From Microcoleus sp. (GTDB lineage: Bacteria > Cyanobacteriota > Cyanobacteriia > Cyanobacteriales > Microcoleaceae), in the NCBI GenBank assembly GCA_042408215.1, contig JAYFMW010000005.1:320001-384000 (forward strand): a stretch of 64,000 nt of DNA. Reading direction: 5' to 3'. Position 1 is the stretch's first letter. Each line of letters opens with the position of its first letter. The notes below the pieces were generated by a model that saw only the letters and a program-made list of their open reading frames with translations, was not told the origin of the DNA and did no database searches. Of this stretch, positions 59,672 to 64,000 are shown piece after piece. The translations under genes and the position numbers were made by a program.

Positions 59672-61267
59672 CTAAAAGGGAGGATCTGTTGTTTTCGATG
59701 ATTCTGTGAGATAGTTCAGATACCGAGAAATGCGATCGGGTTCTGTGTCAAGTAAACGGCTAGCCCAAGAGTGTAAATTTAGTCGATCGCGCATTTCTCG
59801 AAACACCAGAACATCCGGGTTATGATGGAGAGGAAAAACACAAGCATCAAAGCCAGCAGACTTGAGACGACTGACTGTTTCCTCACCATCTTGCACCCAC
59901 AATTGGCGATTAATGCGAACAGGTTGACAGGAATATTCACCTAGGACAATTCCCCCCACAGACACGCTAGCATCTTCTCCACGATTTGAAAGTTCTTGCA
60001 AAATAGCTTTGAGATGCTTCATTTTTTCAGTGTCTTTTACTAGCTTTCGTGTAAACTTGACAATCACCATTTGTAAAACTGCTACAGGTTTTGCTACTTG
60101 TACAATCTTCACTGGTTCTGGGTACAAAACCTCTGCCTCTTCAGTGTCCAATGGCTTGATTTCCTCTGCCATCTCTACCTCTTTTATTGGCTTTGCATCG
60201 TCTACAATTATCTGAATTTCCTCCCCGTCTTTCTCGATTTTTCCACTAATCAGTAAGACAGCATTCTCTGTAATATGTGAGCCAACTTGTTCATAAGTCT
60301 TGGGAAACACAACAGCTTTGATTTGATGTGTTAAATCTTCTATTTGCAAAATTGCCATCTTCTCCCCTTTCTTTGTCACTACAGGTTTGATAGCACCGAT
60401 CATCACAATAACTGATACTTTCCCTTTTTTATCTGCTAGTTGTTCGAGAGTAACAACATCTGGGTCTTGGTTCATTTGAAGCAAATTTTTCAGGGGATGT
60501 TCTGATACATAAAAGCCCAGCAATTCTTTTTCTAATTGCAACTTTTTCTGTGGATCGTAATCTTTGACTATTTTAGATTTTGGCGCAGACTCATACTTAT
60601 TCGCAGACTTCCCAAAGCTCATCCCACCTAACAAGTCAAATAGATTACCTTGACCGCTTTCTCGGTCTTTTTTCCGGTCTTGTGCCCATTTAATGACCCC
60701 TTCCATGTCCTGGACTAATTGATTGCGGTTGCTCTCAATTTTATCAAAAGCTCCGCATTGAATTAATGCTTCCAAAGCGCGACGGTTGACAGCATGAAGA
60801 TTTACGCGATCGCACAAATCTGGTAAAGATTTAAACTTACCCCCTTCCTGTCGCGCCTCCAAAATATTTTCAATTGCGCCCTCACCCACATTTTTAACCG
60901 CCGAAATCCCAAACAAAATTTTATCTTTAGATCCGGTCATCTTGAGCGGCGTAAAAGTAAGTTCAGAGCCATTAATATCAGGCGGCTCAACCTCAATACC
61001 CAGCTTGAGACAATTGGCGATATATCTCTGTACTTTATCCTGGTCGCCACTGTTAGCAGTCAACAGTGCAGCCATGTATTCTACAGTAAAATTTGCCTTT
61101 AAATAAGCAGTTTGATAAGTGATATAGGCATAGGCCATTGAATGGGATTTATTAAAGCAATTAGATACCACCAGACTATTTTCTAGCGTAAAATTATGGT
61201 CTTTTTCAACACCAATGTCATATACCTCTTGAGTTCCTATTGATTTTCTACTAATAATTTTAACCAT
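59672..61267 (-). CDS. dnaE: DNA polymerase III alpha C-terminal part with IntC (dnaE-c)
   Basis: MVKIISRK...HNF...VSN|CFNKSHS..YQTAYLKAN; LGFYVSEHP; OB fold; AGGAG ribosome-binding site upstream of ATG 61267. Confidence 0.97.
   Translation of the reverse strand: MVKIISRKSIGTQEVYDIGVEKDHNFTLENSLVVSNCFNKSHSMAYAYITYQTAYLKANFTVEYMAALLTANSGDQDKVQRYIANCLKLGIEVEPPDINGSELTFTPLKMTGSKDKILFGISAVKNVGEGAIENILEARQEGGKFKSLPDLCDRVNLHAVNRRALEALIQCGAFDKIESNRNQLVQDMEGVIKWAQDRKKDRESGQGNLFDLLGGMSFGKSANKYESAPKSKIVKDYDPQKKLQLEKELLGFYVSEHPLKNLLQMNQDPDVVTLEQLADKKGKVSVIVMIGAIKPVVTKKGEKMAILQIEDLTHQIKAVVFPKTYEQVGSHITENAVLLISGKIEKDGEEIQIIVDDAKPIKEVEMAEEIKPLDTEEAEVLYPEPVKIVQVAKPVAVLQMVIVKFTRKLVKDTEKMKHLKAILQELSNRGEDASVSVGGIVLGEYSCQPVRINRQLWVQDGEETVSRLKSAGFDACVFPLHHNPDVLVFREMRDRLNLHSWASRLLDTEPDRISRYLNYLTESSKTTDPPF
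61160..61267 (-). other. split DnaE intein C-fragment (36 aa)
   Basis: Block F VYDIGV..DHNF; ends SN before the +1 Cys of CFN. Confidence 0.97.
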
Positions 61268-62039
61268 GTTTATAACTCCTGAGAATAGCCTCAATTTTAG
61301 TCTTCTTTCGTTGCAGTCCCAATTGGGGATATTGATACACAAAATCATAAAATGCTTGTATGTTTTTCCGACTAAATATTCTCCAGTAATAAACTTTTTT
61401 GAATAGATGCTCTTGTACAGAGCCCATGCCTAGGTGCATTGCTAGTTCGCAGGCAAATTCAAAAGAACCGACGATGCACACTAAACCGCCACTTCTGCCC
61501 TTGTTTGCATAAGCACAGCCGTCGCCATCAAAGTAGCCTAACACATAAGACGCTAAATATTTTGAGTTTGGGAAATAAGTAACTCCCGAAAAAGTCCTTC
61601 CTGGTATGATGCCGTAGCCGTGTAAAGAGCTTGCCAGTTGTTCAGAAGAAAAATTTATTCGGTAGTGAGGAGCGTAATTTTGAGGCTGAACAACTCTAAT
61701 TTCACCAGAGTATTGTAGCTCTATTCTGAGCATTTCTGTGAGTTCTTTGTCAATAGATTCAAATGCTACATAATTAGTGTTAGTAACGCAGCCATCAGCA
61801 GCTATTAACCCTAACAAATAAGCTTTAGATTGAGAGTCAATTACATCAAAATAGCTTTCATTTAAATAATATCGGTTTCGCCGCTTAGTATTAATATCAG
61901 CTTCTTTTAAAACTCTTGAAACCGCTCTTTCACTCACGCCAAGGTAGTTAGGAATTTCTCGGCACTCCATACCACGCTCAAAAGCAGAAATGATTTGTTG
62001 CTTGTGTTCCGATTTTAATTTCCTATAGTCGAGATACAT
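61260..62039 (-). CDS. free-standing LAGLIDADG homing endonuclease with N-terminal HTH
   Basis: Two motifs, YLLGLIAADG and YVLGYFDGDG; N-terminal helix-turn-helix (IPNYLGVSERAVSRVL); C-terminal LQRKK. Confidence 0.9.
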   Translation of the reverse strand: MYLDYRKLKSEHKQQIISAFERGMECREIPNYLGVSERAVSRVLKEADINTKRRNRYYLNESYFDVIDSQSKAYLLGLIAADGCVTNTNYVAFESIDKELTEMLRIELQYSGEIRVVQPQNYAPHYRINFSSEQLASSLHGYGIIPGRTFSGVTYFPNSKYLASYVLGYFDGDGCAYANKGRSGGLVCIVGSFEFACELAMHLGMGSVQEHLFKKVYYWRIFSRKNIQAFYDFVYQYPQLGLQRKKTKIEAILRSYKHG

Positions 62040-62040
62040 T

Positions 62041-62352
62041 TTATATATCTGAGCGGGGGTTGATTTGTTTTAATTCTAATCCTTTTTCAAAGATTTCGTC
62101 AATGGGCAGCATTTGACCGTCAGCAGTCATAAACTTGTGTTCTTTTGTGGCGCGAATTATCGACCCATCTTCCAGGCAATACTCAAAAACCTCCTGCGGC
62201 CCCCGGCGATGCCACTGTGCAATTGACTGTGTATAAATATGACCATTACTATCAACACTGTAAACACTGCATTGAATTTCTTCCTCAACGATTTTACCAA
62301 TGGCCATCGGCCCATATTCCACAGTCAATATCTGCGTGTCATAGCTCAAGCA
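62041..62352 (-). other. split DnaE intein N-fragment (103 aa)
   Basis: AEY|CLSYDT block [10 protein letters not shown] block B (TxxH); then a stop codon. Confidence 0.97.
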
Positions 62353-64000
62353 ATACTCTGCGAATTGTAGCATCTGCGCGAACAAATCTTCGGCAATTTT
62401 TTGAGGGACACCATTCTTAGTTGCCCCATCAATAAATGTTTCCTTTTGTTTCTGCATTTCATCAGCCTTCTTCTTACCCATTGCGCGGCGCAGCAAGTCA
62501 GCTTGACCCAAAGAATAGCCAGCCAAATCTTGAGCCATCCGCATAATTTGCTCTTGAAAACAAAGCGTTCCGTAAGTTTCTTTTAAAATTGGTTCTAACA
62601 GCGGATGGTCGTATTTAACCACCTCTCTGCCGTGTTTGCGATCGATAAATTGTGGAATCAAACCAGCATCCAGCGGGCCGGGACGGTAAAGTGCGAGAAT
62701 AGAAGAAATATCATCCAGACAAGAAGGTTTGATTTTTTTTACTACATCCAGCATCCCAGAAGATTCCAACTGAAAAATACCTTCTAAATCTCCTTTTTCT
62801 AAGAGTTTGTAAGTTTTTTCTACATCTTCAGGCAACTTTTTGTTCCTGGAAAATATCTCTTGAGCTCTGCGTTCTATATCAGAAGGTAAGCCTTCGGCAT
62901 CGATGGTTATATCTTGCGTTTGCTTAACATAATCAACGGTTTTTTGGAGCGTTGTTAAATTCTTGAGTCCCAAAAAGTCCATTTTTAGTAACCCCAAAAA
63001 TTCCAAATCTTCCATGAAATATTGGGTAATCACAGCACCTTCGTTATTCTTTTGCAGCGGTACAATTTCATCTAGGGGCTGGGAAGAAATCACCACACCT
63101 GCGGCGTGAACGCCATAGGTTTTGTTGGTTCCTTCTATGCGAATTGCCATGTCAATCCACTGACGGACTGGGACTTCGGTGCCAGTTTCTGCATTTATGC
63201 AAATTGTATTTTCGTAGTTGTCTCTAAATTCCTGTGCAGGTGTTTCACCGGAAATCATCACTTTGAGTTTTTCCGGTTTTCCTCGCGACACCGGAATCAT
63301 TTTTGCCATCTCGTCTGCTTTTTTGTAGGGAATGCCTAAAACTCTGGCAACATCTTTCAAGACAGCTTTTGATGTCATTCTGTTAAACGTAATAATTTGC
63401 GCTACGCGATCGGTGCCATATTTTTCAGTAACGTATTTAATCATGTCGTCCCGTCTGTCTATGCAGAAATCGCTATCAATATCTGGCATAGATTTGCGTT
63501 CGGGATTGAGAAATCGCTCGAATAGTAGTCCGTGGTGTACGGGGTCTATATTGGTAATTTTTAGGACGTAGGCAACTAGAGAACCTGCGGCAGAACCGCG
63601 TCCTGGCCCTACGGGAATATGGTTATCTCTAGCATATTTTATGTAGTCCCAAACCACTAAAAAGTATTCAGAAAAGCCCATCTGCTGAATCATTTTTAGT
63701 TCGTATTCTAGCCTTTGTTTGTAGATAGGTGGAATTTCATTGCGGGTGCGGGATTTGAGGCGTTCTAATAGTCCTAGCCAGGATATTTCTTCTACATAGG
63801 TATCGGCGGTATGTTCTGGGGGAATTGGGATTGTGGGAATCCGGGCTTCTCCTGTCAGTTCATATCTTGATACTTTATTTGCGACTTCTAGGGTATTTTC
63901 GATCGCCTCTTCGATCGCATCAGCATCTAAATGGTCTTGAAACAGTTGCGCCATCTCGTCAGCGGACTTAAGATACTCAGTGCCGCTGTAGCGCATCCGC
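62041..64000 (-). CDS. dnaE: DNA polymerase III alpha N-terminal part with IntN (dnaE-n), 5' partial
   Basis: [31 protein letters not shown] and RPGP; the gene starts beyond the window edge. Confidence 0.98.

Follow-up and report, generated by a model that had tools for sequence, protein, structure and literature searches.

A LAGLIDADG endonuclease gene between adjacent halves of the split DnaE intein in Microcoleus: a likely homing cassette

How could the gene of an essential replicative polymerase be split in two without lethal intermediates, a matter posed as an open problem in the available text of Dassa et al. 2009 (PMC2677866)? We address this question at the dnaE locus of Microcoleus sp., in a window of 64,000 nt (contig JAYFMW010000005.1, positions 320,001 to 384,000), where the minus strand carries, in this order, dnaE-n ending in the N-terminal intein half (IntN), a gene for a 259-aa helix-turn-helix (HTH)-LAGLIDADG protein, and dnaE-c beginning with the C-terminal intein half (IntC). 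We consider it likely that this arrangement is a homing cassette that arrives already split, repeatedly fractures native dnaE genes and then decays. A first-pass annotation of the window had offered a mobile homing unit as one reading of the locus, and the distribution and divergence data given below support it.

Layout of the locus and its endonuclease

All features described here lie on the minus strand. The DnaE N-extein, which ends in FAEY and carries Pfam DNA_pol3_alpha and finger domains, is encoded by the 3’ part of dnaE-n (62353..64000), an 887-aa open reading frame (ORF) whose start lies outside the window at C5:384704. It continues into IntN (62041..62352; 103 aa plus stop, coding part 62352-62044, stop codon 62043-62041), which begins CLSYD and was identified by alignment and by phmmer (E = 4.5e-49 against solved DnaE inteins). 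A single spacer base separates the IntN stop (62041) from the ATG (62039) of the free-standing monomeric LAGLIDADG endonuclease gene (61260..62039), so assigned from Pfam, a structural model and the ratio of nonsynonymous to synonymous divergence (dN/dS). At the 3’ end of this gene, an overlap module evident in the sequence (61260..61280) encodes RSYKHG-stop, and the same last codons contain both a GGAG ribosome-binding site and the start codon of IntC (ATG 61267), an overlap of 8 nt whose presence and spacing are kept, with few exceptions, across the intact cyanobacterial loci and also in the distant metagenome locus L418. IntC (61160..61267; 36 aa, matching the C-terminal part of Pfam Intein_splicing) ends in ASN and is followed by Cys+1 and the C-extein (59672..61159; CFNKSH..., with HhH and OB domains in Pfam). 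Read mechanically, the ORF would be longer, from an in-frame ATG at 61348; the start at 61267 is preferred on homology and on the ribosome-binding site.

The intein halves are thus two separate ORFs, 774 nt apart, and the endonuclease between them is read in a frame that differs from both, with stops and frame changes at both junctions; the cassette as a whole measures 1193 bp (61160-62352). The residues for splicing are all present, namely Cys1, the block B TxxH motif, the terminal Asn and Cys+1. This order of parts and all its coordinates had been given in the first-pass annotation and held on rechecking against the sequence. By tblastn across the whole 7.36-Mb genome we found one dnaE-n, one dnaE-c, one endonuclease copy and no second dnaE, so that the locus, on a 708-kb contig with no phage or viral context, is the sole dnaE. 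Sequencing error was considered and rejected as the source of the layout, because identical junctions recur in 15/36 congeneric genomes and in contigs of two independent public runs (X2 and X10), each with one contig that spans the stretch and has no indel at either junction.

The endonuclease matches Pfam LAGLIDADG_3 at 41.4 bits (cut-off 22.5), and the match of its N-terminal HTH is weak. Its two LAGLIDADG motifs are LLGLIAADG (61791..61817), with Asp82 at the catalytic position, and VLGYFDGDG (61518..61544), with Asp173; in the homologue alignment these residues are invariant in 23/23 and present in 22/23 proteins, respectively. The AlphaFold model (pLDDT 89) has the two-domain alpha-beta-beta-alpha-beta-beta-alpha fold, and its top Foldseek matches were I-Tsp061I (E = 2.5e-8) and E-DreI (E = 5.9e-8), with the bI3 maturase and the intein endonucleases PI-PfuI and TliVMA also matched. 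Among 14 congeners the gene is under purifying selection (dN/dS 0.15), and of its copies at 59 cyanobacterial loci, 45 have an open frame, 11 an interrupted one, and 3 run into a contig end. We infer that it encodes an intact monomeric LAGLIDADG enzyme, predicted to cleave the element-free allele. The nearest homologues carry Microcoleus labels; in one Microcoleus vaginatus record (L068:5492-8001), a 2.5-kb insertion breaks the endonuclease gene and leaves both intein halves intact. A distant homologue with a 360-aa open frame was seen at another locus (L203; G083:C1:4834900-4836000) of a genome whose dnaE is intact.

Distribution and divergence of dnaE alleles

Examination of 36 congeneric genomes revealed the endonuclease in 16, of which 15 have the full layout and one, G016, has its pieces at contig ends (it was nonetheless entered as ‘unlinked’ in the trees). 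An intact, intein-free dnaE occurs in 14 congeners, adjacent halves without the endonuclease in three (gaps of 123-320 nt), and a cis mini-intein in one (G020, whose assembly is 84% complete and has frameshifts elsewhere); two yielded no usable locus. In the endonuclease-less congener G014, the gap retains the last codons of the endonuclease, and G024, counted among the 16 carriers, has one empty allele alongside a filled one. The two codons that immediately precede the site show a synonymous variant in L177, L183 and L190 (G002, G015 and G035), i.e., in 3/15 empty and 0/21 intein alleles; it may possibly confer resistance to cleavage, although these numbers are small.

Empty and filled states are interleaved on the host trees. 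The rpoB tree has 9 state changes (32 scored rows) and the distal dnaE-n tree 10 (34 rows), the latter rejecting a single clade of the 14 empty alleles (approximately unbiased test, p-AU 8e-128). On a class-wide extein tree of 148 hand-picked cyanobacterial rows there are 37 state changes, and the empty alleles are native sisters of the local split alleles. Divergence within the cassette is shallower than around it: in a clade of eight genomes, the mean synonymous divergence (dS) is 0.047 for the endonuclease and 0.068 for IntN, as compared with 0.21 for the distal N-extein, 0.24 for the C-extein and 0.21 for rpoB (excluding implausibly high rpoB values, up to 2.8, that involve G000), roughly a fourfold lower divergence in the cassette than in the sequence on either side. 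The dnaE gene of G029 is nearest to two empty alleles and contains a cassette nearly identical to those of other carriers. Similarly, the exteins of G069, a single-contig genome, are sister to the empty G094 and G112 and 84-92% identical to those of empty congeners, and its endonuclease and IntN group with Trichodesmium and Okeania (support 100/99 and 99/78), a grouping that the extein data reject (p-AU 0.0003). Judged from these sequences, at least one transfer of the cassette between distant lineages has taken place. Both alleles were also recovered from a single metagenome run, X7, in which a contig lacking exactly 1193 nt (depth 83) shares its flanks with a cassette contig (depth 9) that differs from the window at 1 of 1300 nt.

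Mapping linkage and intervening ORFs over further cyanobacterial genomes yielded empty, cassette, linked, unlinked and cis forms. Among 24 genomes from other families of the order, two have the endonuclease or a remnant of it and eight are empty; the halves are separated by 6.2 kb in one, and in the other 13 they lie at a large distance or on separate contigs. In a class-wide draw of 221 genomes, sampled evenly and therefore not reflecting natural frequencies, dnaE is contiguous and intein-free in 128 and split in 93, with the endonuclease in 9/93 (context checked in 8). In 14 of 80 endonuclease-less split genomes the halves are ordered and lie 0.7-4.2 kb apart around filler genes such as Uma2; same-orientation Uma2 and other nuclease-like genes were noted in the gaps of L207, L209, L210, L212, L213, L220, L225 and L229. 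Two linked, endonuclease-less genomes (G093 and G232) retain GGAGTT at a similar place upstream of IntC. Unlinking is of intermediate degree in eight genomes of one genus (G100, G118, G132, G145, G179, G190, G227 and G266), where the two genes share a strand and dnaE-c sits about 14 kb upstream of dnaE-n.

When species genomes were scanned, 78 loci were kept. The 59 from cyanobacteria all adjoin an intein half, and 50 of them adjoin both, in records titled, among others, Kamptonema, Chroococcidiopsis, Aerosakkonema, Laspinema, Okeania, Trichodesmium, Leptolyngbya and Chamaesiphon. One scan locus is titled as a Gloeobacterales bin; these taxon names are record labels, and bins can be mislabelled. 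The layout is not rare in cyanobacteria; the first-pass annotation had described similar fractured genes as known mainly from phages and metagenomes. Among the 120 long protein matches listed, four further clusters carry a cis mini-intein of 133-136 aa at the cyanobacterial split site; contiguous forms of 133-145 aa, which may be either ancestral or re-fused, were noted in P0277, P0278, P0279 and P0280 and at L194:4364-4798 (G020). One to three extra insertions, some of them intein-like, were seen in the dnaE-n of the endonuclease-bearing loci L048, L055, L058, L061, L062, L072, L074 and L075, at most 70 codons upstream of the site (about N-extein residues 480-535).

In the mechanism we propose, one transcript would be read by coupled translation into three products (DnaE-N-IntN, the endonuclease and IntC-DnaE-C), and the intein halves would trans-splice to give whole DnaE, as suggested by their homology to the Npu and Ssp DnaE inteins, their intact catalytic residues and the presence of this one dnaE. 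The endonuclease would cut the uninterrupted FAEY-CFNKSH site when carrier and non-carrier DNA meet, and repair would copy in the whole cassette, splitting the native dnaE in one step, an event to which the distribution and divergence data point. After fixation the endonuclease would decay, with the gap shrinking or filling with unrelated genes, or with the halves drifting apart to the state of Ssp and Npu; alternatively, the gap would close into a cis mini-intein. Each of these decay states is seen, and we propose their order.

As for signals around the coupled genes, a weak, putative sigma70-like promoter match (10/12) lies within the end of IntN, 34 nt 5’ of the endonuclease start (62073..62102). 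Matches of at least 9/12 occur in 13/33 endonuclease-bearing, 3/15 linked and 3/47 other inteins, a comparison between non-independent kin in a sequence that is also constrained by the protein. We detected no terminator within 61100-62500 and no hairpin above shuffles upstream of the endonuclease or IntC start (7 folds); z-scores for RNA hairpins before the endonuclease start ranged from -1.14 to +1.38 in all six loci folded, with none conserved. One RNA run gave a lone 240-nt contig across the endonuclease/IntC overlap, which is uninformative on transcription.

Origin of the endonuclease and alternative explanations

The cyanobacterial endonucleases form one clade (100/100), next to which stand L418 and nine proteins (P0121-P0133). 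L418, a metagenome contig of 4.6 kb, encodes a divergent DnaE and has, at the same site, the same IntN, endonuclease and overlapping IntC (identities: DnaE 41%, IntN 53%, endonuclease 46%, IntC 58%), followed by a metallophosphoesterase gene. Eight of the nine tails tested from the next-closest homologues, with the L418 control among them, could hold an IntC start read out of frame, a fit that at most 0.9% of null windows equal, with the register picked by eye. The ‘ENCWK’-like tails of P0121, P0127 and P0130 had been considered as a group I intron core, an idea dropped because they fit the out-of-frame IntC start.

Outside that set (support 100/99), the homologues (31-35% identity) reside in intein-free dnaE genes of Clostridium, metagenomes and viruses, where the dnaE frame breaks off after the same codons, with the endonuclease next in line and the dnaE frame resuming about 300 nt further on. 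The junctions in L079, L080 and L116 fit an intron (exon U, terminal G) 4 nt downstream of the intein site, and in L080 an Rfam group I core (75 bits) directly follows the endonuclease gene. In dnaE of L079-L085, L087, L116, L419-L421 and L497-L499, members of this endonuclease family lie in what look like group I introns, and several of these genes carry further introns upstream (Rfam matches in L080, L085, L087 and L116); we found no literature report of these Clostridium, metagenome and viral dnaE introns. Members of the same intein family also occur at the same site in the viral contigs L576 (2840-4543), L577 (4001-7892) and L578-L580, split around filler genes that are long and structural-looking. 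Searches for closer kin gave no close viral endonuclease copy in viral_contigs (best 34% identity; no match to the P0122 query), none in GenBank phages (best 33% among the matches listed), and no match of IntN in GenBank phages.

The cassette may have arisen when a site-targeting endonuclease of the group I intron family entered an intein out of frame, probably in a phage. Such a phage origin is plausible on these comparisons and is not established, because the intein trees lack resolution. Intein endonuclease domains normally occupy the position between the splicing regions, which is where this endonuclease lies, and its fold matches include PI-PfuI and TliVMA; as one option, the first-pass annotation had suggested that the three cistrons derive from the break-up of a contiguous intein whose endonuclease domain was in frame. 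Against this proposal, the search for an in-frame endonuclease fusion among longer proteins found none (five weak matches, at most 32% identity, in themselves weak evidence), and the cis forms at the site are all mini-inteins. The endonuclease begins with an HTH of its own, those of its relatives that are characterised occur as stand-alone ORFs within introns, and the relatives identified outside the split-intein group belong to group I introns at this dnaE site. Breakage would moreover need two simultaneous frame breaks, and we regard it as very improbable. The enzyme family already targeted these codons, and out-of-frame invasion of an intein (step II of the model in the available text of PMC2677866) fits better.

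Could the intein instead have been split and endonuclease-free at first, with the endonuclease settling later between adjacent halves, as Uma2 has, and then becoming mobile? The endonuclease-less genomes with ordered halves and fillers favour this scenario, as do the viral versions with fillers in place of this endonuclease and the lack of clear remnants upstream of IntC at 30 loci. Yet the ribosome-binding site and start of IntC are supplied by the endonuclease in all intact loci, the orthologous gene in the distant L418 has the same overlap, eight of nine homologue tails fit the IntC start (with the register judged by eye), and the remnant in G014 denotes loss. Endonuclease-bearing and endonuclease-less inteins are also mixed on the poorly resolved IntN tree (10 changes), and late arrival seems unlikely to us. 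Re-linking of once unlinked halves followed by invasion, also raised in the first-pass annotation, stands as to invasion and mobility; the re-linking is less economical, because the same intein family and an orthologous endonuclease share the layout in the distant, phage-like dnaE of L418. A single ancient split in the cyanobacterial ancestor, with the locus a vertical relic and intact alleles restored by precise loss or recombination, accords with the membership of all cyanobacterial halves in one intein family at one site, with the single endonuclease clade, with the unpolarised state changes and with the route to loss that the cis mini-inteins offer, and it is the published view as summarised in the available part of PMC2677866. 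It would require dozens of precise reversions that leave native exteins, even where the halves lie far apart, and would leave unexplained the purifying selection on the endonuclease, the low dS within the clade and the foreign cassette in the native exteins of G069, so that we give it little credence. The locus does represent an intermediate stage of gene splitting, as the first-pass annotation had suggested, and ‘surviving relic’ understates it, given the common empty alleles in close kin and the signs of recent cassette transfer.

A number of observations weigh against recurrent invasion by a pre-split cassette. The weakest step is that from the cassette to the classical unlinked alleles, whose descent from it is not established, because all 30 endonuclease-less loci examined in other families lack a clear endonuclease remnant upstream of IntC. 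In X7, about 90% of the depth is empty, although most empty alleles share the site sequence of the carriers; the sample may hold two strains with merged flanks, which contigs cannot phase. The genus recombines freely and the rpoB and dnaE trees reject each other, so tree conflict alone is not specific to homing, and ordinary recombination could move both alleles; as state changes are unpolarised, their counts cannot tell gain from loss. Co-conversion of the flanks is modest (proximal/distal diversity 0.55 vs 1.20, with 1.2-2.4% of subsets equally low) in a window delimited after the data were seen, and the proximal dip in G029 is common to an empty allele. The intein trees comprise 97-131 columns and are without resolution, L418 is phage-like by gene content alone, and the Rfam intron core was found after the gene in one of six loci at a relaxed threshold and in none of seven more, the remainder being assigned by exon-junction logic. 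On balance, we see as evenly poised the broader claim that all cyanobacterial split DnaE inteins, those of Ssp and Npu included, would be decayed copies of one phage-derived, pre-split cassette that made dozens of independent fractures and is invading living populations still, with an endonuclease from a group I intron lineage aimed at those same few codons.

Implications and comparison with known systems

A cassette arriving pre-split, with its own stop, ribosome-binding site and start codon, would remove the problem of lethal intermediates and makes the question testable, since donor alleles, empty recipients and decay products all occur in one genus and both alleles in one sample. If the cassette still enters intact copies of dnaE, as appears to be the case, the best-known natural split intein would not go back to a single event, the gene having been split many times, and the ‘single irreversible break’ would give way to a repeatable cycle of invasion and decay in an essential chromosomal gene. 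This would be split-intein homing in a cellular chromosome; a single endonuclease family with a single target would connect the mobility of inteins with that of group I introns, and split dnaE would have to be read differently as a phylogenetic marker. In practical terms, the loci supply a compact LAGLIDADG family with a predictable target, as well as naturally occurring cis forms of the DnaE intein, which is in wide use.

In full-text searches this arrangement did not turn up in print; their coverage excludes subscription papers, Caspi et al. 2003 among them, and supplements, of which those of PMC4760082 could bear on linkage. With the split DnaE inteins of Ssp PCC6803 and Npu (PolIII-alpha insertion point a), the locus shares intein family, FAEY|CFNK junction, half lengths and catalytic residues. 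It differs in that the halves are neighbours on one strand and enclose an endonuclease gene, whereas the classical halves occupy separate loci without an endonuclease, an arrangement attributed to one irreversible break in the available text of PMC2677866. All known inteins at point a are stated to be split in the available part of Novikova et al. (PMC4760082); we find that empty, linked and cis mini-intein forms also occur there.

The closest parallel is with the fractured genes of Dassa et al. 2009, which, in the available text of PMC2677866, share the layout, a free-standing out-of-frame endonuclease and its 3’ overlap with the IntC start (6-69 bp there, 8 nt here). Steps II, III and IV of that model are all present here at one site. 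The endonucleases of that text are GIY-YIG or Vsr-like and the word ‘LAGLIDADG’ has no occurrence in it, whereas ours is LAGLIDADG by Pfam and fold; the hairpin before the endonuclease that it describes is not conserved here. Its loci are phage-like metagenome fragments at other DnaE sites, as compared with the sole chromosomal replicative polymerase and the population evidence of mobility reported here.

The group I intron endonucleases of Clostridium and phage dnaE (L079-L087, L116 and L497; PHROG 4645) belong to the same HTH-LAGLIDADG family and invade the same host gene, with that of L080 sharing 35% identity over 273 columns and its intron inserted 4 nt from the intein site. In those systems, which have no intein, the host gene is mended by RNA splicing, whereas here it would be mended by protein trans-splicing. 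In Aeromonas phage Aeh1, mobE overlaps the downstream half of nrdA, as the endonuclease does here; that system is without an intein, the enzyme works as two chains, and the endonuclease is of HNH type. There too, as cited in the available text of PMC2677866, a free-standing endonuclease splits an essential gene. The Microcoleus locus fills in the model of PMC2677866, as far as its available text describes it, for the classical insertion site, and calls into question that the split happened once, long ago.

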